Shown: piece after piece, positions 9,751 through 52,913 of the stretch | Layout of the letters: each line of letters starts with the position of its first letter | Numbering within the stretch: the first letter of the stretch is position 1 | Made by a program: the position numbers and the translations under genes | The notes under the pieces: generated by a model | The model's database searches: none | What the model was told of the DNA's origin: nothing | Seen by the model: the letters and a program-made list of their open reading frames with translations, nothing else | NCBI GenBank assembly: GCA_020241125.1 | Contig: GCA_020241125.1_4708.1 | Reading direction: 5' to 3' (one strand) | DNA length: 64,000 nt | Origin: a phage

Positions 9751-12543
9751 TTATCTTACGTTAGTGTTATTCTGTTGTTCACTGAACCAACCATACACCT
9801 TGAGATCGGTACCGTATCTCAGTGCGATATACGCATTCAGCGCAGCACAGAACAAAGACGCGAATGCCCATATCAGCGAAGGATCAACATCTTCCGTTAC
9901 CACTGGGAGAGTATTATCCGGTTCCCATGATGGTGAACTGTCCATGAACGTTGCGTACCATCCCCGCCGTTGTTCTTCAGTGGTAAAGTCGCTATGAGGT
10001 TCCAACGCTTCTTTTGCCAGACGTCGATATTCGAACATATGCGTTGCTAAAGCCGATGAGTTACCAGATTCGCCTTCATAGTTCGGATCCACCGCATAAC
10101 AGAGTTCTGTTGAATCTAACAAAGCAACCGCCTGTGTGATGCTGTCGGCAGTACCTGCACCATAGAGCTCGATAGACCGCGAAAGCTTCTCACAGAACGC
10201 ATTTAACGCGGAAGGATTGGACACCTGAAGGTCAAGGCCTAATGTCCACGGATAGTTACTGAATACACCCGTAAACCGCGGCATAACACCCAACAGATGT
10301 TGTCCGATTACAGCACGGTTATAAACAGCCCTGTTATAGACTTGAAACGCAGCCTCCAGGGCTTGGTTATAATGACGACGAAGTTCGTCACGCGAGTTGC
10401 GGAATCTGTTTGCCGCAAGACTCGTGGCTGCGACGCTACAAACATCGTAATTGGTGGACGAGAGCACAACTTCGTTAAGATCGAACGCTTCCTGTTTCAA
10501 TGTTCCGCTAACAGCCGCTGCTTCGCTGTTCGCTTTATCGACAACTGTACTCAAAGCGTTAATATAACGTTTAGCTCGGACTTCCAACCATTGTGCGATA
10601 CCGAGAATATCCACCGCAGCTTTAGCAAGATCGCGTGCGTTCACGATTTCGTTCTTCAAAGCCCCTAAACCTTTATTTTCAGGCGATGAGGCTTGTTGAC
10701 GAATCATGCTGTTTAACATGGTAAGCAGATTATCCAGCTCATGTCCGCTGACCTTGTTGCGCGCATCGGTAATCGGCCCTTGCAGGAATTTACGGCAACC
10801 ATCGTTGTATCGAATCAGTTTATCCACATCGATAGATTCGTTCGTGGATTCCTTGAACTGATCCTTCAATTCTTCACGGTAGTCATGGATTTCACTTGCG
10901 AGATTATCGATAGTGATACCGTTATGTCCAAGAAGAACTTTATTGAAGTTACCTTTCTCGAATGCCAGAGCAAGACCTTCACGAATCTTAGCGAGTTTAT
11001 CCTGATCGAGTTCACGACCGTTCGATAGCTCTTTCACTTCCGAGCTGATTAATGCCGAAACGTTACCCAGATTGTCGGTAACCCCTTTGAACGCTCCCGA
11101 CCAGATCGTTCCTGCTTCAGCATATTTCGCAATGGTCTGAATACCGACGGTGTGCAGCGACGCTAAACGTTTCTTCGTGCCTTCGGTAAGCAGAGCGTCT
11201 TTAGCTCGCGTAAGCTGACTGTTATTAGCTTCCGCCTGCTGAATCGCTGCTTTCGCACTTCCATTACGCCAGCTCTTAACTAACCAATCAACCAAACGTT
11301 TTAGGATATTGACGGTGTATTCCATTGTCCGCCGTAACGTTTCCCACGCGCTTTCTGCGGTATAGATGCCGTACCCTTCCATCTTCGTTGGGTCAAAGAA
11401 ACCTTCCTGCACGAGATCGATACGTGTGTAGCCATCAGCAGCTTCTACTTCCGCCTGGGTTTTATCCCAGAAGTCGTCGCTCTTTGCAGCAATCGCTGTA
11501 TCTTTAACGTCCAGGATGATCTGACCAACCGTTTGTGCAAACAGCAAGGCCGCACGTACCGATTGTGCGAACATCCGCTGATATTTGATTCGAACGCATT
11601 GCATCTGGGTTAGCAGATTCAGTTGTGCGATCCCATCCAAGGTGCTATCCTGAGCAAGCCCTTCGGCTTTAGCGATAACCTGTTTTACACGTTCAGCGAC
11701 ATCACCGTACTGCTGGCAAACATCCCGCAGAATACGTGTTGCGAAGACCCCGGTACCGATATAGTTCAATAGGTCTTTTAACGACCATTCGGTCGGACAA
11801 TCGGTCGGCGCAATAGGGAGTAAGCAACCATCACCGTCCATGAATCTCTCTAATGCGCTAATATCCTGATTTTCTACGCTCATGGGGATATCGACATCAG
11901 CCGCTTGCAGATCCAGCATCTGTTGTAGGATGTTGGTATCGGCTTGTACAAGCGTCGCAAGCGCTTGGCTGTGTGCGATTATTGGTAACGCAGGCGACCA
12001 TACTGCAGCAAGCTTGTCGGCGTGACGTTGAATGGCATACCCCATATCCTCGATCACATCGGGATGCTCGATAACCCCCTGAAGCGTTTGATGTAGCTCA
12101 CCGAGTTGCTGAGACAGATCGACCATCATGGTGTTGAAGGTTTCGCCATCCTCTTTGTGGTTGTCCAGACGCTCGAGTTCATGTCGAAGCAATATGACGA
12201 GCTGTCCGTTGCCTTCTTGCTTCAGCTTGCTTTCCATTAACGTAATGGCTTTATCGACGATCTGGCACGCTTCACGAAAACCGGTTGTGGAAGGAAGCTC
12301 TGTCCATAACGCCAGCGGTTTACCGTCAAGGGCTTCCGGCATCGATAACGAAAGCATAGACAGTTGTTGACGTGATACTTGCTGTTCACAGTGTAATGTT
12401 TCTTTTAACGCCAGGAGATCGTCAAGAAACGCGCCGTTAAGGGTGGTCGTACGCGGTGTTGAATTAATACCGTCAGTTAACGATTCAAGCACCAGGAGAC
12501 CGTTATCAGCTGAAGAGAGTCCCGCGGCAAGATATTTGTTCAT
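9751..12543 (-). CDS. Hypothetical large helical protein; candidate internal/ejection protein (LVxEGF family)
   Basis: 930-aa ORF; contains LVQEGFFDP and a downstream LVDWLVKSW helix resembling motifs in the 70..1410 and 12603..15398 proteins; predicted highly alpha-helical. Confidence 0.55.
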   Translation of the reverse strand: MNKYLAAGLSSADNGLLVLESLTDGINSTPRTTTLNGAFLDDLLALKETLHCEQQVSRQQLSMLSLSMPEALDGKPLALWTELPSTTGFREACQIVDKAITLMESKLKQEGNGQLVILLRHELERLDNHKEDGETFNTMMVDLSQQLGELHQTLQGVIEHPDVIEDMGYAIQRHADKLAAVWSPALPIIAHSQALATLVQADTNILQQMLDLQAADVDIPMSVENQDISALERFMDGDGCLLPIAPTDCPTEWSLKDLLNYIGTGVFATRILRDVCQQYGDVAERVKQVIAKAEGLAQDSTLDGIAQLNLLTQMQCVRIKYQRMFAQSVRAALLFAQTVGQIILDVKDTAIAAKSDDFWDKTQAEVEAADGYTRIDLVQEGFFDPTKMEGYGIYTAESAWETLRRTMEYTVNILKRLVDWLVKSWRNGSAKAAIQQAEANNSQLTRAKDALLTEGTKKRLASLHTVGIQTIAKYAEAGTIWSGAFKGVTDNLGNVSALISSEVKELSNGRELDQDKLAKIREGLALAFEKGNFNKVLLGHNGITIDNLASEIHDYREELKDQFKESTNESIDVDKLIRYNDGCRKFLQGPITDARNKVSGHELDNLLTMLNSMIRQQASSPENKGLGALKNEIVNARDLAKAAVDILGIAQWLEVRAKRYINALSTVVDKANSEAAAVSGTLKQEAFDLNEVVLSSTNYDVCSVAATSLAANRFRNSRDELRRHYNQALEAAFQVYNRAVYNRAVIGQHLLGVMPRFTGVFSNYPWTLGLDLQVSNPSALNAFCEKLSRSIELYGAGTADSITQAVALLDSTELCYAVDPNYEGESGNSSALATHMFEYRRLAKEALEPHSDFTTEEQRRGWYATFMDSSPSWEPDNTLPVVTEDVDPSLIWAFASLFCAALNAYIALRYGTDLKVYGWFSEQQNNTNVR

Positions 12544-12602: not shown

Positions 12603-15398
12603 TTAAGCTAATTTACCGAAACCGGCTTTCTGCAGTTTCTCGTTGATGATTTTCGCTTCAGCGAAGACGTAATCGCGGTAGGCGGTCACTAACGCATCCA
12701 CACGTGAACGCAAGGCTTCTTCGAAGCTATACCACGCTGCGATTTCACGAATCTGTGCGTTGATATAATCAACGGTTGAGCGAAGCTCGGTTGCGTTTTC
12801 TTGCGGAACGGCTTTCACCTGGCGAGCAACGTCATTTAAACGGCGGAACTGTGTTTCGATTTCTTTAAACTTACTGTCGGCAAGTTTGCTGAATTCGTCA
12901 CCAGAACGGGTAAATAACAGATAGCTGTTGCCGTCAAGTGCGGTCGCTAACTGCTGAAGTACGTTGGTGTCCGGATACACAGGAGTACCGCTTTGCAGTA
13001 CTTTCTCACCGAATTCCGCGAAGTCCTTCGGTGGTAAGTGTGCAGACGTTGTCAATTCGTTGAAACGGAAAGTCAGCGAATTATCATACAGCATCCGGTA
13101 CGCTTCCATACCCTGTTTCATGGTACCGGCCAGGTTAGCCAGACGCGGAGCAATCTCGCCTTCTTTAGCGCGTTTCTGGTCTTCTAACGCCCCTTCGAGT
13201 TCTTTACACTGGTCGTTCAGATACACGATACGATCAGGACGTAGACGACGCATCTCACGAAGAATAGTATCCAGCTTACCTTCCTGGAAATAACCCAACG
13301 TTAAAGACGTACACGCTTGCTGAAGACGATCGAACACCGGTAAGGTTACCATCTCCTTACGGATACCATCAACAATCGCAGAAACAGCCGAAAGTTTCTG
13401 TTCTGTAGTCAATGGAACATCAGAGGCCGACTTGCTGGGTGCACCAACAACGTTACGCATTGCGTCGGTATCCTCGGTTTTATCAACCTCTTTACGAACA
13501 TGCTCATCAGGAACATAAACGTTCGCGTTACGTTTCGCCTGCTTGATGGCGTCGTTGGCCGCTTTTTCGGTGGCCGCTACGCTATCGGCACGTTTCTTCA
13601 AGAGTTCAATAATCCAGAGCAACAGACGACGAATCGCAGTGTAGGCTGTCGTGATGATGACACCGATAACAGCCATCTTCATGATACCGAACGATTCCAT
13701 GGTCGGCTCTAACGCTTGGTCTGGCATATACCGTTCACGCAGCTCCAGATAGATCTGCTCATCTGGTTTGCTGACCTCACCACGATGCGAAGTCCGATAA
13801 ATGGCTTCGTCAATCTCAACAAGATCTTTGCGTGCCTGACGGTCAGATTCTGTTAGGTAAGCACAACCGGATACGTCGTCTTCGAAGCTTAAGAATTTGA
13901 AAAAGTCACTGACGTCGATCTTGATCTTCTTCGCTTCATTATCGACATCGATAACATCTTTTTTCTGTGCCTGATATTCCGCTTTGATGTCGTTCACCGG
14001 CTTCAACGCACGTTCTTTTAATACCTGCACGATCTGTTTCCAGTCGGCGTCACGCTCAAGAACAAGGAAGTAATTCTTGAGTTCAAAAGCACGGTAACGC
14101 GCAACGAGTTGTTCTACCTGAATATGAGCGAGTTGCACATCCATCAGCCAACGCGACATTGCTGAGATCAAACGGCTATAAGCAAGCAATGTCTGATATG
14201 TTAGCTTCATGTGCTTTTCGTACAGCTCAATATCGCCGTCTTGAATATCAGCCGTTGGGTTCATTTCCTTCGTTGCTTTGAAGATCTGTTCGGCCTCATT
14301 TAACGTTTGTTCGAATTTGACTTCATTAAACGTGTCAAACGGTTCAGCCAACTCCATCATTCGATCGTGAAGCTCACGAACCCAGGCTTCCTTATTGTTG
14401 CGAATAGCTGCGTCATCGTGAAGTTCAGTTTGATGTTTCTGTACCCATTCTTCGACGATATCAGCGGCGGCAACAATTCCTGTACCATCGGAAACTAACG
14501 GAACAACTCCAGCAAGTACGCCTACACACGCCGGGGTTTTCCAATAATCGTTCAAAGCGTTTCTGAATTCAACGATGGATTGTACGTTTGGTACCGTATC
14601 CAAAAACGTACTGCCGTTACGGCTCATTGTCGTTACGATATCAGCGAATTCCTTCTGCTTAGCGGTAACAAAAGGAACCAGGACCATAAGCCATTCAGCA
14701 ACCGACTTCGCTTTCTCTTTCAGATTTTTGTCAGCGATTTCCTTAAGGTTTATCGCACCACCGTAACCTGCAAGCTCTTTATATACGTCGCTAAGGGTCA
14801 TCTGTTTATCCAACATTTCTTTGAAACGTGGGTAATCAGCACCTAACGCATCGACAATATCGTTGATTACGTCATCAGTTGTTGCGATAAACTTCTTCGT
14901 ATCAACGTTTGAATATTTCCAGACGTATCGTACTGCTTTCTTGATTCCTGCAAAGATAAACGCCCAGATACGCTTGATGAGTTCCCAGACTTTCTTCGCG
15001 CCATCGACAAACAGTTTAGAGACCTTGGCAACGAATCCTTCCTGCACCAATTCAACGCCGTTACGTGATGGGATTTCCGTGAAGAAAGCATCCGGCAGTT
15101 GTTTCGGGAATGCGTCACCAAGACGCATACGCAGTTCCGGTACATCAGCACGAGAAATACCGCGTGTTACTAATTGTTCGTGAAGACGAACGTTTTCTTC
15201 ACCAGAGGTCACGAATTCGTCAACATCGAAGGAGACCATTGTTTCCTGATCTTCGGTGGTAACGACGCTTGAACCATCACTGGTTTGGATGTCTTCGTCA
15301 GGGAATGCCATGAGCATACCGTGACGCATTTCAACCACCCCGTAATCGGTTGCTAAACCGAATTCGTTGTGGTCTGGGGTAATAACTGGGATACTCAT
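12603..15398 (-). CDS. Hypothetical large helical protein with a hydrophobic segment; candidate internal/ejection protein (LVxEGF family)
   Basis: 931-aa ORF; acidic N-terminal ~110 aa then LVQEGF and KKVWELIKRIW helix; hydrophobic stretch IMKMAVIGVIITTAYTAIRRLLLWII. Confidence 0.55.
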   Translation of the reverse strand: MSIPVITPDHNEFGLATDYGVVEMRHGMLMAFPDEDIQTSDGSSVVTTEDQETMVSFDVDEFVTSGEENVRLHEQLVTRGISRADVPELRMRLGDAFPKQLPDAFFTEIPSRNGVELVQEGFVAKVSKLFVDGAKKVWELIKRIWAFIFAGIKKAVRYVWKYSNVDTKKFIATTDDVINDIVDALGADYPRFKEMLDKQMTLSDVYKELAGYGGAINLKEIADKNLKEKAKSVAEWLMVLVPFVTAKQKEFADIVTTMSRNGSTFLDTVPNVQSIVEFRNALNDYWKTPACVGVLAGVVPLVSDGTGIVAAADIVEEWVQKHQTELHDDAAIRNNKEAWVRELHDRMMELAEPFDTFNEVKFEQTLNEAEQIFKATKEMNPTADIQDGDIELYEKHMKLTYQTLLAYSRLISAMSRWLMDVQLAHIQVEQLVARYRAFELKNYFLVLERDADWKQIVQVLKERALKPVNDIKAEYQAQKKDVIDVDNEAKKIKIDVSDFFKFLSFEDDVSGCAYLTESDRQARKDLVEIDEAIYRTSHRGEVSKPDEQIYLELRERYMPDQALEPTMESFGIMKMAVIGVIITTAYTAIRRLLLWIIELLKKRADSVAATEKAANDAIKQAKRNANVYVPDEHVRKEVDKTEDTDAMRNVVGAPSKSASDVPLTTEQKLSAVSAIVDGIRKEMVTLPVFDRLQQACTSLTLGYFQEGKLDTILREMRRLRPDRIVYLNDQCKELEGALEDQKRAKEGEIAPRLANLAGTMKQGMEAYRMLYDNSLTFRFNELTTSAHLPPKDFAEFGEKVLQSGTPVYPDTNVLQQLATALDGNSYLLFTRSGDEFSKLADSKFKEIETQFRRLNDVARQVKAVPQENATELRSTVDYINAQIREIAAWYSFEEALRSRVDALVTAYRDYVFAEAKIINEKLQKAGFGKLA

Positions 15399-15835
15399 GC
15401 ATTCTCTCCTTGCAGTGCGTTAGCGAAAGCCGTTGCGAGTTGCGCAACCAGCTTAGGATCAACACCTTCGATAACGTCGGGCAGCCCTGCGGTTTCTTGG
15501 TCACGAACGGCGGAGGCTAATAACAGCATGGTTTCAGGTGCGGTCGGCTCATGCACCATGCGGTAACGCAGGCACCAGAAGTAGCGGGCAACGTCTAACG
15601 CATCGGCCAGCCCAATAACCAGTACCTTGTTCAGCTTATCCAGCCCTTCACGGATTTTAGGGAGATGTTCGCGAACGAAAATGCTATCTGCGGTCAGATC
15701 TTCTTTTTCAGCGAATACGGGCATGCTGTAACCAGCGATATAACCTGCGGCAATACTTAGCGCACGGGTCTGTTGTTCGGCTGGGAAATCACGTACCAGG
15801 TCTTTCAGCTGAACGGCGAAATCAGAAATATTCAT
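15395..15835 (-). CDS. Hypothetical protein
   Basis: 146-aa ORF; 4-nt overlap with downstream gene. Confidence 0.5.
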   Translation of the reverse strand: MNISDFAVQLKDLVRDFPAEQQTRALSIAAGYIAGYSMPVFAEKEDLTADSIFVREHLPKIREGLDKLNKVLVIGLADALDVARYFWCLRYRMVHEPTAPETMLLLASAVRDQETAGLPDVIEGVDPKLVAQLATAFANALQGENA

Positions 15836-15867: not shown

Positions 15868-17178
15868 TTAGGCGATAATGGAGTCAAGAGTCGCTGCGGT
15901 TTTGAACAGATCGCTGTTCATTGTAGAAGAAAGGACTTGCTGAATTTCTTCCTGTTTAACCGCTTTACGAACCCCAGGACGAAGGATAAGCGTAACCATC
16001 TGTGAAAAGGTACGATTATTGTTCATCGCACTCAGCGTTTCATCGATTGTTTTGATGGCATCCAGCGTCATGGAACGAACATCGCTTGGGATATCACGAT
16101 CTTTCAAGCGTATAATTAAATCTTGTTTGATTTTACGGAATCGTTCCATGTCGTTATCGTAAATGCTGTATGTCGGATCTAACCAAACAGAAAGCGCGGT
16201 TACAGCGACAACAACCAACACGCCGATAGCACCAACAGAAGCTAAACCTATCGCCATCATAGAAGCTATAGTAGCATCCATGATGAAGGAGAGCCAGAAC
16301 ATCGTTTTGGACTTCACGGAGTCTTTGCTATAAAGCCGATACATTTTAGCAAGCCCGCTAACGAGATACTCCCCACCGCCATGACGCGTAGCGAACTGAT
16401 CAGCCATGAATTCGGAAGCAACGTCGGTATATCGTCCAGCGTTGTTTACGTTTCTTAACTGCATCGCTCTGTTAGACACGTAAACCGTGTACCAGACACT
16501 ACCGTCGTCTGAATCACTGATTTTGTCTACGTCGACGTTGGTATCCAACGTTTTGTTTAACGCTTTCGCCAGTTCGATACGTTTTACCTTATCGGTTGTC
16601 CCCAACAGTTCACGCTGTACGGTCATGATTGAGGCTTCGACACGAACCGTTTCCGACAATGTTTCAAGGAAGGTAAATGCGTGCCCGATTTCATGCAGCA
16701 TTATGGCTGCTTTTTCTTCCGGAAGAAAGGGTTCTGTCGCCGTTAGCAGTTCATACGTGATGGCAGAACGAATCTTCAATTCTTCAAAAATACCGTAAAC
16801 ACGACCTTTTTCTAAATCGACGTAACCGACAGGTGTATCTTTAATCTTCTTAAGGAGCGTAACACCATCAGCACCGCGCATCCATAACCGATGATAGTCT
16901 GCCAGGATTGTGTTGTTTGTCGAAATATCCGGCGGGTACACGTAGGCATTCATCCGGCCCATTTTCACGTCGACCGAGAATTCGATGTTCAACCCCGTAT
17001 AGCGTTTAACCATCTCGGTTAAACGACCGTCCTTGAAAACGTTTAAAACCTCTTTTTTATCCAGTCCCTGTTTGCTTCTGAAGAACTCGGTCATTTCCTT
17101 GAACAAGGAACCATCTTGAAACTTGATGGCCTCCATCGTTAATTCGTCATGACCATACACGCGTTGTAGTAATGACAT
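15868..17178 (-). CDS. M48-like zinc metallopeptidase with C-terminal hydrophobic segment
   Basis: HEIGH zincin motif (MLHEIGHAF) followed by EFMADQFA, matching the HExxH...ExxAD zinc-ligand arrangement of M48 (HtpX/Ste24-type) peptidases; long hydrophobic segment MFWLSFIMDATIASMMAIGLASVGAIGVLVVVAVTALSVWL. Confidence 0.6.
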   Translation of the reverse strand: MSLLQRVYGHDELTMEAIKFQDGSLFKEMTEFFRSKQGLDKKEVLNVFKDGRLTEMVKRYTGLNIEFSVDVKMGRMNAYVYPPDISTNNTILADYHRLWMRGADGVTLLKKIKDTPVGYVDLEKGRVYGIFEELKIRSAITYELLTATEPFLPEEKAAIMLHEIGHAFTFLETLSETVRVEASIMTVQRELLGTTDKVKRIELAKALNKTLDTNVDVDKISDSDDGSVWYTVYVSNRAMQLRNVNNAGRYTDVASEFMADQFATRHGGGEYLVSGLAKMYRLYSKDSVKSKTMFWLSFIMDATIASMMAIGLASVGAIGVLVVVAVTALSVWLDPTYSIYDNDMERFRKIKQDLIIRLKDRDIPSDVRSMTLDAIKTIDETLSAMNNNRTFSQMVTLILRPGVRKAVKQEEIQQVLSSTMNSDLFKTAATLDSIIA

Positions 17179-17190
17179 TGTACACTCTCT

Positions 17191-17206
17191 AAATTTACGT
17201 AAATTT
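17191..17206. promoter_or_regulatory. Perfect 16-bp palindrome AAATTTACGTAAATTT (candidate operator)
   Basis: Exact self-complementary 16-mer 12 nt upstream of the M48 peptidase start codon, in the divergent region shared with the PolB gene. Confidence 0.4.
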
Positions 17207-17399
17207 AAGGGTTCATGGATCGGCTGGCCGCACCAATCACAATGTGTCCGCTGCTATGCAACGGCATTCATAGAAATACCTTTTGACGGTAACATCACCG
17301 TTCATACCCCAAGCAATAAGAGTGGTCGGTTAAAAACAACAGAACGTGAGGATGATATAGAAAATCACCTTTTAACACTTATTACGAGTTTATCAAGCC

Positions 17400-19151
17400 A
17401 TGAGCGAACAAGAACGAAAACCTAAGAAGAAACTGCTCGGTATTCAATGTCGACACATCAGCTATAACGAAGCGAACGATGGCAGCAAGAACGACCTCAT
17501 GATCGCAAAAGAGATCATGTTCTTCGATGATAATACGCAAGCGACGAACCTTCGCTTCTTCGAGAATTACAAACGTCCGTTTTGGGTGACGGTAGAGAGT
17601 AAACGTAAGAACAAATATAAAAAGGAAAGCGAGAAGCTCTCGCATGTGCGTCGCTACGATGTCCGCCAAAGCGAACTGGTTGAAAAGATCAGCTCGGTAC
17701 TTTATAAAAGACGTGCTGACGATAACACCCGTTTACAGCAGCTTGCACGGAGTCCATACCTCTATGGAACGGACGTTAGCGCCAGCTGTTATTTAAAAAC
17801 CCAGTACAACACAAAATGGCCGGAATACGTCGATAAATTACCCGCTTCCATTGCCTGTTTCGATATCGAAACCGACGTTGTCCACGGACACGGTAAGATC
17901 GTTTGTATGTCTATTACAATGGGATACAATGCGATACTTTGCTATACCAAGGACTTCGTTGGTCATATTCCGAATGCCATTGAGAAAACCCATGAGAAGA
18001 TTCGATATTACCTGGCCGAACGTCTGAATACCAAAGAAGATCCCCACGCATTCGAAAAATATCAGTACGATGTTCGAATCGTAGAAAGCCCGGCACAAGC
18101 GGTCATCCAATGCATGCAGAAGGTTCACGAATGGCAGCCGGATTATCTCCTTGGCTGGAATATCGCGTTCGATATTCCGCGCATGCTCCAGGCACTGAAC
18201 GAGGAAGGGTATCGTCCCGAGGATGTTTTCTCCGATCCCCGTATACCACCTAAATATCGTATTGCTCGCTGGGTACCACCGAAGACCGACAAGGTATCTG
18301 CTTCAGGTCGTAAAACCAACCTTACCCTTGAGCAAACCTGGCCGATGTTTTATACGATGGCTACGTATCAGGTTATGGATGCGATGTGTGGCTATAAGTT
18401 CGTTCGTTTAGGAAGACCGGATGAAGGACGCTATTCACTCGATGCGGTGTTAGAGCGAAATAAATGCCATACGAAATTAAAAGCTATTCCTGGTACAGAG
18501 GGGTTCACGGAGCTTGCCTGGCACGAAGAGATGCAAACGAACCATCAAATCGACTACGGCGTATATAACCTTTGGGATAACCAGGGTATTGAGGCGTTGG
18601 ACCAGAAAACAAAAGACTATTCGATGACCATCCCTATCCGTTTAGCGGCGTCGGATTTGAAAGATTTCAGTTCTAACCCTAAACGTATCTGCGATAAACT
18701 TTTCTTCGTTTATCTTAACCGTGGGGAAGTCATGGGATGTACCGCTGACGACATGACCCAGGAAGAAGATAAGTGGGTTATCTCACGAGCTGGACATATC
18801 GTCACATTACCATGCGATCTCATGGCTGACAACGGCATTCATCTCTTCTGGGATATGCCGAACCTGAGAAGTTATATCCGTCTATTCGTTGCAGACCTTG
18901 ACATTAGCAGTTCATACCCGAATGGGCAGATCCTGTTGAATCTATCCAGAGCGTGTGTTTTTCGCGAGCTCTCACGCATTGAGGGCGTCTCTGACTATCA
19001 ATTCAGGAAGTTAGGTATCAACTTTATTACCGGAGGTAAAACGAACGCTGTAGACTTCTGTAGAATCGTTTATAAAGCACCATCGATGTTTGAACTTTTA
19101 GAACATTTCGATGCAACGCGTCCAAAAGAGGAAGCGCGGACCATCGAATGA
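17400..19151 (+). CDS. Family-B DNA polymerase, N-terminal part (3'-5' exonuclease domain plus motif A); appears split or truncated
   Basis: Exo I-like FDIETD, Exo II-like GWNIAFDIP, possible Exo III YSLDAV, and pol motif A DLDISSSYPNG (DxxSLYPS-like); no motif B (KxxxNSxYG) or motif C (DTDS) before the stop; flanked by opposite-strand genes. Confidence 0.55.
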   Translation: MSEQERKPKKKLLGIQCRHISYNEANDGSKNDLMIAKEIMFFDDNTQATNLRFFENYKRPFWVTVESKRKNKYKKESEKLSHVRRYDVRQSELVEKISSVLYKRRADDNTRLQQLARSPYLYGTDVSASCYLKTQYNTKWPEYVDKLPASIACFDIETDVVHGHGKIVCMSITMGYNAILCYTKDFVGHIPNAIEKTHEKIRYYLAERLNTKEDPHAFEKYQYDVRIVESPAQAVIQCMQKVHEWQPDYLLGWNIAFDIPRMLQALNEEGYRPEDVFSDPRIPPKYRIARWVPPKTDKVSASGRKTNLTLEQTWPMFYTMATYQVMDAMCGYKFVRLGRPDEGRYSLDAVLERNKCHTKLKAIPGTEGFTELAWHEEMQTNHQIDYGVYNLWDNQGIEALDQKTKDYSMTIPIRLAASDLKDFSSNPKRICDKLFFVYLNRGEVMGCTADDMTQEEDKWVISRAGHIVTLPCDLMADNGIHLFWDMPNLRSYIRLFVADLDISSSYPNGQILLNLSRACVFRELSRIEGVSDYQFRKLGINFITGGKTNAVDFCRIVYKAPSMFELLEHFDATRPKEEARTIE

Positions 19152-52805: not shown

Positions 52806-52895
52806 CTTGACATCCTCTTATATTGGATTGATTGCTAATAATTCAAGGTGAAGCTGATTACTGCATTGCTTCACCTAGGTAATATAGCCGTGAAA
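52806..52895 (-). promoter_or_regulatory. Conserved promoter/5' leader element, copy B
   Basis: Proximal CAATCCAATATAAGAGGATGTCAAG-ATG and distal TTTCACGGCTATATTACCTAGGTG about 67 nt upstream; near-identical to copy A. Confidence 0.5.
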
Positions 52896-52910
52896 ATTAA
52901 TGCATTAATT
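52895..52910. promoter_or_regulatory. Perfect 16-bp palindrome AATTAATGCATTAATT (candidate operator)
   Basis: Exact self-complementary 16-mer between the stop of gene 52914..53939 and promoter element copy B. Confidence 0.4.
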
Positions 52911-52913
52911 TAT

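Follow-up and report, generated by a model that had tools for sequence, protein, structure and literature searches.

In the core gene table of Chimalliviridae, the family considered here is listed as cg22, 'putative virion structural protein', and its orthologs in other phages include 201phi2-1 gp145. In the SPN3US member, gp45, a 20-residue propeptide is cut away by the serine prohead protease gp245 (PMC5694885, PMC10052503); the SPN3US authors drew the comparison with capsid targeting in phage T4. SPN3US proheads lacking gp245 show no processing, though nearly all virion proteins are present in them (PMC7411985). The Goslar member, gp67, was identified in virions with 46.8% mass spectrometry coverage (19 peptides) and estimated at ~48 (32–76) copies per virion. 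A second head protein relevant to this locus, of the SPN3US gp47 type, has a predicted transmembrane helix, is proposed to be ejected and is part of the vertex binding complex. The DNA that nucleus-forming jumbo phages inject arrives in a membrane vesicle, and both the formation of this vesicle and its resident proteins are stated open questions (PMC12908238).

The window analyzed here is a 64,000-nucleotide stretch of phage DNA (contig GCA_020241125.1_4708.1) from a Goslar-like chimallivirus with 92.5% nucleotide identity to Goslar. The original prediction singled out one of its genes as encoding a membrane-type M48 zinc metallopeptidase of the HtpX/Ste24 arrangement, located next to a putative block of internal proteins. 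The features of the locus are collected in Table 1.

Table 1. Features of the peptidase-like gene and its surroundings in the window
Feature	Coordinates	Strand	Basis
Putative M48-like zinc metallopeptidase gene, 436 aa, ATG start	15868..17178	-	ORF list
N-terminal propeptide, codons 1–16, predicted cut after T-M-E16 by prohead serine protease	17131..17178	-	conservation, ortholog propeptide, Goslar peptide
N-terminal alpha/beta subdomain, aa 17–150, strands before active-site helix	16729..17130	-	AF2 model, hhalign
HEIGH, predicted zinc-binding/catalytic motif (H162, E163, H166; aa 162–166) on helix 153–192	16681..16695	-	conservation, ZMPSTE24 alignment
EFMADQFA (aa 256–263), predicted third zinc ligand E256 and D260, helix 252–282	16390..16413	-	conservation, ZMPSTE24 alignment
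Hydrophobic helical hairpin, aa 291–333 (predicted helices 291–313, 317–333)	16180..16308	-	hydropathy, AF2
C-terminal helical domain, aa 343–436	15871..16152	-	AF2 helices 343–435, conservation
146-aa ortholog of Goslar gp66/PhiKZ gp85, capsid vertex-binding-complex protein	15395..15835	-	PDB match E 1.3e-92
931-aa ortholog of Goslar gp65/PhiKZ gp86, vertex-binding-complex protein	12603..15398	-	PDB match E 0
Perfect 18-bp palindrome TAAATTTACGTAAATTTA, 11–12 nt upstream of ATG	17190..17207	.	sequence
Divergent intergenic region, peptidase gene to DNA polymerase gene	17179..17399	.	alignments

A known virion protein family with a distant M48-like zinc site

Sequence comparison identifies the 436-aa protein as an ortholog of Goslar gp67, PhiKZ gp84, SPN3US gp45, PhiPA3 gp086 and RAY gp286. 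It matches PHROG 2767 over residues 12–432 (E 5.7e-82) and shares 91% amino acid identity with Goslar gp67 and 24–27%, over ~95% of its length, with the orthologs from SPN3US, PhiPA3 and the PhiKZ-like phage SL2. Homologs were found by tblastn in 218 phage records, from jumbo phages, and the profile of the family picks up 3,817 clusters (50% identity). At least one GenBank record already names a member M48 protease. The protein is a typical representative of this established family, whose enzymatic side is putative. Structural relatives are present in Bacillus phage AR9, which means that the protein does not belong exclusively to steps found only in chimalliviruses, such as the early-infection (EPI) vesicle.

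The putative peptidase motifs lie far beyond chance expectation. H162, E163, G165, H166, E256 and D260 are invariant in 188/188 family members, mostly representatives of clusters at 50% identity, and these include both histidines of HEIGH, on whose conservation in orthologs the predicted zinc site depended. When the family profile was compared with the PDB, the top match was ZMPSTE24 (E 0.0016), with both zinc motifs colinear. HEIGH is aligned to HELGH of ZMPSTE24 in this search and to HEIxH of the Escherichia coli M48 proteins by hhalign, and SEFMADQFA is aligned to RRFEFQADAFA within residues 412–441 of ZMPSTE24, a stretch that we take to contain the third zinc ligand, E415. The hhalign comparison with E. 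coli HtpX, BepA, LoiP and YcaL (probability 84.6%, E 6.9e-6) pairs aa 131–167 with the region in which a strand is followed by HExxH. Pfam family PF01435 (Peptidase_M48) is matched weakly by 14/26 relatives, with a best E-value of 2.5e-5; in one of them the score, 19.0 bits, falls short of the cutoff of 20.3. Because the gathering threshold is missed, the window protein is a distant relative of M48 and not a Pfam-defined member. Several relatives also match the HtpX models of NCBIfam weakly, and relatives in BFVD carry the names 'Zincin protease' and 'Peptidase M48 domain'.

The window's own protein has no PF01435 match even at E<=10, and searches of it alone against Pfam, NCBIfam and PADLOC gave no M48 or defence match; its link to M48 is therefore visible only via profiles and relatives. 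Neither the window protein nor its PhiKZ-type ortholog has a phmmer match in the PDB, and a Foldseek search of the PDB returned nothing significant. Overall, the evidence supports the 436-aa protein as an M48-type peptidase of clan MA, a putative gluzincin (HExxH and E-x-x-A-D), at the level of a distant relationship only, and in this form the proposed M48 assignment is borne out.

Domain organization and local divergence

In the AF2 model, the N-terminal subdomain has strands at residues 64–70, 78–81, 118–121, 126–129 and 135–141. The N-terminus itself has no hydrophobic segment by either hydropathy or AF2; the sole such segment is the hairpin at aa 291–333. Residues 292–333 include one charged position among 42, and the Kyte-Doolittle maximum over 19 residues is 2.57. 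A hydrophobic segment is found in 184/188 family members directly after the Glu helix, where column conservation is the lowest in the family. HtpX has transmembrane helices that flank HExxH and precede the glutamate, whereas the single hairpin of the window protein comes after the Glu helix. Accordingly, the HtpX/Ste24 likeness that had been proposed holds for the motifs and for the presence of a hydrophobic segment; it does not extend to an N-terminal helix, which is missing, or to the position of the sole hairpin. The uncharged hydrophobic segment ranges from ~17 to ~50 residues across the family, so that one topology cannot hold for all members. Conserved residues of the C-terminal region are Y340, R346, K359, Q413 and L424-F425. 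In two fusion proteins considered as 'Rosetta stone' candidates (P0165 and P0176), the extra regions contain no informative domain.

The hairpin is also locally hypervariable: aa 301–330 are 37% identical to Goslar, as against 80–100% in every other 30-residue block. Between Goslar-like phages in which the DNA polymerase and gp66 are 97–99.6% identical, the peptidase is 48–78% identical at the amino acid level, and the central part of the window gene falls into one of three or more divergent classes of allele that circulate among Goslar-like phages. By these sequence comparisons the peptidase gene is a local divergence hot-spot, with what might be called a host-interface flavour. Despite this fast divergence, dN/dS is 0.10–0.28, i.e. 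the gene is under purifying selection. Across the family alignment, the commonest residue of a column has a mean frequency of 0.28–0.63, depending on the region.

Gene neighbourhood and upstream region

The gp66-like gene lies downstream of the peptidase gene in the same direction, separated by 32 nt, and is in turn overlapped by 4 nt by the gp65-like gene, the positional equivalent of SPN3US gp47. The corresponding PDB chains are named 'PVC protein gp66' (110 copies modelled) and 'PVC protein gp65' (55 copies modelled). Since both neighbours are capsid vertex-binding-complex proteins and not inner-body proteins, the idea of an internal-protein block has to be abandoned. No significant paralogy was detected between the two ~930-aa ORFs of the window. 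The gene order, with a divergent DNA polymerase gene upstream and the gp85-like and then gp86-like genes downstream of the peptidase gene, is kept in Goslar, SPN3US, PhiPA3, SL2 and two metagenomic loci (L005 and L006).

A 16-bp palindrome had been reported 12 nt upstream of the start codon. It is indeed there (AAATTTACGTAAATTT, positions 17191–17206, exactly 12 nt from the ATG at 17176–17178), and it forms the core of a perfect 18-mer. By shuffling, ~0.93 perfect palindromes of 16 bp or longer are expected per window and 62% of the shuffles contain one or more; the palindrome alone is not beyond chance. It is kept in four Goslar-like genomes, one of them with diverged adjacent upstream sequence; it does not precede the orthologous genes of SPN3US, PhiPA3 and SL2. 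A search of the window that allowed at most 3 mismatches gave no further copy, and the half-site is confined to the palindrome. The palindrome could be a 5'-UTR element, an operator or a promoter. Alignments that include the intergenic region show 5–6 differences in ~240–270 columns to Goslar and L006, and this region is more conserved than the synonymous sites of the flanking genes (pS 0.17–0.27). It has no Rfam match and no sigma-70-like promoter. A TATG motif resembling the PhiKZ late promoter lies 94 nt upstream and does not recur upstream of other genes of the window.

Cargo and substrate of head maturation

The predicted propeptide cleavage site is strongly conserved: E16 is present in 185/188 relatives, and position P3 is Ser, Ala, Thr or Gly in 178/188. 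The motif of the prohead protease is S/A/G-x-E, so the Thr at P3 in the window protein is near-consensus, and T-M-E16 aligns with A-S-E20 of SPN3US gp45. The N-terminus of Goslar gp67 is identical to that of the window protein, and a semi-tryptic peptide from Goslar virions, AIKFQDGSLFKEMTEFFR, begins at A17, which fits a cut after T-M-E16. A second virion peptide in the published Goslar proteomics, AAIMLHEIGHAFTFLETLSETVR, comes from the HEIGH region. For close orthologs, packaging in the head, with some tens of copies, is established, and by analogy with Goslar gp67, given the 91% identity, the window protein is probably packaged in the virion head as well.

As is shown for close orthologs, the serine prohead protease cuts off the first 16 residues; head maturation therefore has the M48-like protein as cargo and as one of its substrates, and another enzyme carries it out. 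A role as head-maturation protease is ruled out by the published SPN3US data, in which gp45 is cut by gp245 and proheads without gp245 stay unprocessed. The suggestion that a membrane-type M48 enzyme replaces the usual serine head protease fails on the first of these observations, and the second argues against processing of the neighbouring proteins during maturation. The window protein itself has no similarity to the prohead protease family (T4 gp21/PhiKZ gp175/SPN3US gp245).

Possible role in infection

The invariance of the zinc site suggests an active zinc-dependent peptidase. Our best explanation, to which we give roughly even credence, is that this divergent M48-like virion protein is packaged, ejected and inserted into a membrane, where it acts as a peptidase early in infection. 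Inside the capsid it would stay latent, perhaps attached close to the vertex complex, and it would exit with the DNA and other ejected proteins. The hydrophobic hairpin would then insert into the host inner membrane or the EPI vesicle membrane, and the juxtamembrane active site may cleave a host or phage protein that lies close to the membrane and is required for successful entry or early infection. Activity on host envelope or defence proteins, as had been considered before, is possible. Several points weigh against the ejected-peptidase explanation: a hydrophobic hairpin would need shielding in a DNA-filled capsid, and the transmembrane layout is unlike that of HtpX and Ste24; the missing Pfam match of the window protein, the varying length of the hydrophobic segment and the relatives in phage AR9 count against it as well. 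In a TnSeq study of PhiKZ, no filtered transposon insertion fell within the 1,242 bp of PHIKZ084, compared with one per 42 bp on average over the genome. The same paper explains the missing insertions in the neighbouring orf85-86 by polar effects, as deletions there are tolerated, so the zero count in orf84 is no proof of essentiality.

The peptidase might instead act inside the head, either degrading the propeptide and scaffold fragments that the serine prohead protease produces, down to a size that allows capsid exit, or cutting links that hold vertex-complex or inner proteins for release at ejection. This would suit a protein that is packaged with a short propeptide resembling the T4 capsid-targeting sequence, has its gene immediately before those of the vertex-complex proteins gp66 and gp65 and, at ~48 copies, is compatible with 55 (five at each of 11 vertices); moreover, propeptide fragments are reportedly cleared completely from PhiKZ and 201phi2-1 heads. 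Such an activity is nevertheless unlikely, given that normal processing does not occur in gp245-less SPN3US proheads with nearly all virion proteins and that all mapped head cleavages follow the x-E motif of the serine protease. It would also leave the conserved membrane-type hairpin without an obvious role, and the label-free copy numbers are rough (gp66 is estimated at ~1,000, against 110 modelled).

A narrower version of the ejected-peptidase explanation, which we consider improbable as a whole, makes gp67/gp84 an unmodelled partner of the vertex complex, with ~5 latent copies under each of the 11 non-portal vertices. It would possibly account for the unassigned helical density beside gp65. 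Released during genome ejection, the protein would insert by its hypervariable hairpin into the host inner membrane, and the membrane-inserted protease would help to form or remodel the EPI vesicle or remove a membrane-associated host barrier. If this were true, the first phage-encoded membrane protein of the EPI vesicle would have been identified.

In these phages, prohead assembly takes place at the inner membrane. Very improbable, in our view, is a membrane-anchored assembly factor, of which the hairpin would tether or nucleate the prohead at that membrane and proteolysis would free it. The protein does combine a hydrophobic hairpin with cleavage by the prohead protease, but the cut takes off only residues 1–16, and purified virions still contain the mature protein together with its hairpin, with peptides detected across the protein. 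Tens of copies per head also contrast with a single attachment point, and the strict conservation of the zinc site would be left unaccounted for. Least credible is a protein without catalytic activity that serves only as a structural component, minor in the capsid or part of the vertex complex, and has a retained zincin fold: peptidase activity is only predicted, unassigned helical density adjoins gp65 in the Goslar map and the copy number is near 55, but H162, E163, H166, E256 and D260 are invariant in all 188 members against column means of only 0.28–0.63, dN/dS indicates purifying selection and pseudoenzymes normally lose such residues.

Significance and comparison with known systems

The protease that seemed unusual at first is a conserved virion protein already on record, and not a new kind of head-maturation system. 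The family is one of few virion-packaged core proteins, it combines a recognizable enzymatic site with a membrane-type segment and it is not present in solved virion structures; together with the lack of insertions in PhiKZ, these properties make it worth testing. None of the papers covered by our literature search treats this phage family as a peptidase, which makes it a concrete and cheap experimental candidate.

Compared with the other cg22 orthologs, the window protein has full-length homology, the same length class and gene neighbourhood, the N-terminal x-E cleavage site and the invariant zinc-site residues. It differs from them in nothing essential and represents a new allele; the hydrophobic hairpin of Goslar gp67 is another sequence variant. 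With SPN3US gp47/PhiKZ gp86/Goslar gp65 it has in common the gene cluster, processing by the prohead protease, a hydrophobic segment and fast divergence between related phages. However, gp65 has no sequence similarity to the peptidase and no enzymatic motif, and it is resolved in the capsid map, whereas gp67 is found in no PDB entry.

The T4 internal proteins IPI–III and Alt resemble this family in their short N-terminal propeptide ending in Glu (16–20 residues in the family), in its removal by a prohead protease related to T4 gp21 and in being enzyme cargo in tens of copies. Ejection of the present family is only proposed, and its cargo would be a zinc peptidase with a hydrophobic hairpin rather than an ADP-ribosyltransferase or anti-restriction protein.

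Members of MEROPS family M48 (Ste24/ZMPSTE24, HtpX, Oma1, BepA, LoiP and YcaL; PF01435) share with the window protein a helix-borne HExxH after a beta-strand region, a putative third-ligand Glu in an E-x-x-A-D-x-F/x-A helix and a predicted active site adjoining a membrane-type segment. This Glu lies 80 residues after the first His of HExxH in ZMPSTE24 and 94 residues after it in the window protein. Unlike the M48 enzymes, the window protein has no N-terminal transmembrane helix, signal peptide, lipobox or TPR cap, it has an extra C-terminal helical domain, and its family is packaged in the capsid with a propeptide that is removed by a protease.

Distribution of the zincin family

The zincin encoded in the window is the counterpart of Goslar gp067 and, according to record annotations and tblastn, of PhiKZ gp84, 201phi2-1 gp145, PhiPA3 gp086, EL gp52 and SPN3US gp45. 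It belongs to PHROG 2767, a function-unknown group (E 5.7e-82). In their supplementary table of the Chimalliviridae core genome, Prichard et al. enter it under cg22 as a 'putative virion structural protein' and equate Goslar gp067 with PhiKZ gp084 and RAY gp286 (PMC10299810). Homologs are present in 218 phage records (tblastn). Among clusters at 50% identity, 3,817 match the family profile, and 1,744 do so at E<=1e-30. Of the 150 best matches listed from these 3,817, almost every one is 411-482 aa long, the exceptions being two fused proteins. In these metagenomic sequences, P0165 (1,237 aa) and P0176 (839 aa), the entire peptidase module is C-terminal in a far longer predicted protein. A domain search with their extra 400-800 residues gave nothing informative, and they could be either genuine fusions or products of faulty gene calling. 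Publications already cover the gene family, where the protein sits in the virion and how it is processed, and here and there a database annotation uses the M48 label; the enzymatic nature and the membrane-type segment appear to have received no treatment in the searchable literature.

Features of the zincin locus. Amino acid identities to the window are from two metagenomic Goslar-like loci
Feature	Position	Orientation	Description	Identity to window
Zincin ORF	15868..17178	-	ATG start, 436 aa	78% and 48% (the latter in L006)
HEIGH	16681-16695	-	aa 162-166, inside zincin ORF	
EFMADQFA	16390-16413	-	aa 256-263, inside zincin ORF	
Hairpin cassette	16189-16278	-	codons 301-330	
gp66 ortholog (PhiKZ gp85)	15395-15835	same as zincin, 32-nt gap	146 aa; deposited Goslar chain E 1.3e-92	98.6%
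gp65 ortholog (PhiKZ gp86; SPN3US gp47 positional equivalent)	12603-15398	same direction, 4-nt overlap	931 aa; Goslar chain E 0	86-95%
gp064 ortholog	9751-12543	-	930 aa, downstream of gp65 ortholog	
Intergenic region	17179-17399		221 nt	
Palindrome AAATTTACGTAAATTT	17191-17206		12 nt from ATG; perfect 18-mer at 17190-17207	
Family-B DNA polymerase	17400-19151	+	uninterrupted 583-aa ORF	97-99.6%
Palindrome TTTCTTCCGGAAGAAA	16713-16728		inside peptidase gene, encodes FLPEEK	
Palindrome GTTTCGATATCGAAAC	17857-17872		in polymerase Exo I motif, encodes FDIE	
Palindrome AAATTAATGCATTAATTT	52894-52911		AT-rich 18-mer in intergenic gap of two minus-strand genes	

Relationship to M48 peptidases

The original prediction described an ORF with HEIGH, a downstream EFMADQFA and a long hydrophobic stretch in an M48 (HtpX/Ste24) arrangement, and all of these elements are present as described. 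Residues 292-333 form a stretch of 42 residues with one charged (Kyte-Doolittle 19-residue maximum 2.57), predicted to fold into a single hydrophobic hairpin of helices 291-313 and 317-333, C-terminal to the Glu helix. As a single sequence, the zincin matches neither Pfam M48 nor any sequence in the PDB. The best match of a 25-member family profile against all PDB sequences is human ZMPSTE24 (M48A; E 0.0016), in two colinear parts, namely, the HExxH helix and 'SEqlADqFAtRhG' versus 'RRFEFQADAFAKKLG' (residues 412-441), the latter including the third zinc ligand, E415. Pfam Peptidase_M48 was matched by 14 of 26 relatives scanned singly (best E 2.5e-5), while one relative scored 19.0 bits against a cutoff of 20.3; several gave weak HtpX NCBIfam matches. 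Alignment of the family by hhalign to E. coli HtpX, BepA, LoiP and YcaL yielded 84.6% probability (E 6.9e-6) over only 34 columns (strand plus HExxH). Among predicted viral structures, the zincin model matched orthologs, a 'Zincin protease' of Bacillus phage AR9 and a 'Peptidase M48 domain-containing protein', and the ortholog of Serratia phage Moabite is already labelled 'M48 family lipoprotein protease'. Both HEIGH histidines (H162, H166), as well as E163, G165, E256 and D260, never vary in an alignment of 188 family members, in which the commonest residue of a column has a mean frequency by region of only 0.28-0.63. The profile-level comparisons agree with one another, and we conclude from them that the protein is probably a divergent gluzincin of M48-like type whose catalytic site is intact. 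A distant M48 relation is upheld, with the zincin falling outside Pfam-defined M48, and its membrane layout differs from that of HtpX/Ste24: an N-terminal transmembrane helix is absent and the only hairpin follows the Glu helix.

Packaging, processing and neighbours

SPN3US gp45 is a head protein by mass spectrometry, and its 20-residue N-terminal propeptide, likened by the authors to T4 capsid-targeting sequences, is cut off by the serine prohead protease gp245 (PMC5694885, PMC10052503). E16 of the window protein (T-M-E) aligns with SPN3US E20 (A-S-E); glutamate occupies this position in 185/188 relatives, and S/A/T/G is found at P3 in 178/188. Purified Goslar virions yielded 19 peptides of gp067 (46.8% coverage), and the LFQ fraction of this protein corresponds to ~48 copies per virion, range 32-76 (2026 structure preprint supplement, bioRxiv 10.64898/2026.04.21.720040). 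In our reading of the peptide table, a single identification, AIKFQDGSLFKEMTEFFR, starts at A17 right after E16, exactly where the mature protein is predicted to begin; the Goslar and window proteins are identical over their first 60 residues. It is demonstrated or strongly supported that the zincin is conserved, has an intact active site, enters heads at tens of copies and is trimmed at E16 by the prohead protease. Head maturation is not carried out by the zincin, because proheads of SPN3US mutants without gp245 contain almost all virion proteins and lack normal processing (PMC7411985).

The block next to the gene, originally taken for internal proteins, consists of orthologs of gp66 and gp65 rather than PF12699 inner-body proteins. 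In Goslar, both are part of the 'vertex binding complex', which sits inside the capsid at the eleven non-portal vertices; 110 copies of gp66 and 55 of gp65 were modelled, and helical density beside gp65 was left unassigned (bioRxiv 10.64898/2026.04.21.720040). Goslar gp67 itself is absent from PDB entries. Its ~48 copies would agree with 55 and so suggest that it associates with the vertex complex; we keep this as a lead only, because LFQ estimates are rough, with gp66 estimated at ~1,000 copies versus 110 modelled (bioRxiv 10.64898/2026.04.21.720040). In PDB 36za, the chains matching gp66 (110) and gp65 (55) bear the molecule name 'Inner-peripheral baseplate spoke gp32', whereas 11fg and 11mk name these sequences 'PVC protein gp66' and 'PVC protein gp65', so that the names in 36za look mis-assigned. 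The gp65 chains in 36za begin at residue 135 of the window protein, which fits an N-terminal propeptide of 134 residues, either cleaved off or disordered. Goslar gp064 is also abundant in virions (~110 copies estimated) and unmodelled (bioRxiv 10.64898/2026.04.21.720040); its ortholog does not significantly resemble the 931-aa protein next to it.

Allelic exchange and the upstream region

The zincin gene is a local hot-spot of divergence: against the two metagenomic loci it is saturated at synonymous sites (dS 1.5-1.8) and its flanks are not (0.2-0.7); therefore, the central part of the gene has been exchanged between lineages. In the metagenomic Goslar-like locus L006, identity to the window is 96.9% across the polymerase gene, the intergenic region and the initial ~100 nt of the peptidase gene and 87.8% from the last ~150 nt of that gene through the downstream genes, and the central ~1 kb is too diverged for blastn. 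This mosaic (window 16023-17076 versus L006, also L005, a second such locus) indicates allele replacement by recombination. Between the window and Goslar, hairpin residues 301-330 are 37% identical, with 57% nucleotide identity over codons 301-320, versus 80-100% in each other 30-residue block. Two hairpin 'alleles' are variously combined with flanking residues in database relatives P0001-P0005.

The palindrome predicted 12 nt upstream of the start codon is found at that distance and is 18 rather than 16 bp long. The 18-mer is unique in the window. Four Goslar-like genomes keep it, one of them L005, whose sequence just upstream differs by an indel and many substitutions. By chance, 64 kb would hold about one such palindrome; the 18-mer is absent upstream of distant orthologs, PhiKZ-type upstream regions sharing a TCTTTATGATTA motif instead, and its transcript could fold only into a weak stem made entirely of A-U pairs. 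Perfect palindromes of 16 bp or more occur four times in the window versus 0.93 expected from shuffles, three of them within 1.2 kb. The whole intergenic region has diverged less than the synonymous sites of the genes on either side (5-6 differences in ~240-270 aligned columns versus Goslar and versus L006, against 17-27%), which indicates purifying selection on non-coding sequence; it has neither an Rfam match nor a sigma-70-like promoter.

In Goslar, L005 and L006, the polymerase ORF, annotated or called, ends at 499 aa, and an HNH endonuclease gene comes next (of NUMOD1/HNH type in Goslar). The break point corresponds to ~18895-18915 in the window (Goslar locus L001 12597-14379), and the ~1.8 kb Goslar insertion matches the Rfam group I intron RF00028 just below the gathering score (44.7 bits, E 2.4e-9). 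The window ORF being uninterrupted, its phage has the intron-less allele.

Proposed role

In a PhiKZ transposon screen, PHIKZ084 had zero filtered insertions in 1,242 bp versus one per 42 bp genome-wide (PMC12676376). Essentiality of orf84 is likely and not proven, because orf85-86, also free of insertions, tolerate deletion, the authors blaming polar effects (PMC12676376). Our best guess, which we hold at roughly even confidence with the identification of the protein included, is that the peptidase identified here would be carried latent in the capsid, exit together with the DNA, insert its hairpin into the inner membrane or the membrane of the early-infection (EPI) vesicle and, early in infection, cut a host or phage protein close to that membrane. 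Phage AR9 has structural relatives, which cautions against linking its function to chimallivirus-specific organelles. An intracapsid clean-up or release peptidase is an appreciably less probable reading. That it tethers assembling proheads to the membrane, an idea raised by protease mutants whose proheads are membrane-bound, is improbable, given that the mature zincin, hairpin included, stays in virions, and a dead structural protein is more doubtful still, the catalytic residues being invariant. The zincin is a testable candidate for early-infection membrane events. The hydrophobic segment is kept in 184/188 relatives, and its hypervariability is the pattern expected of a part touching lipid or a variable partner. 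It recalls the fast-evolving neighbour gp47/gp86, for which action at the host membrane was proposed by the SPN3US authors.
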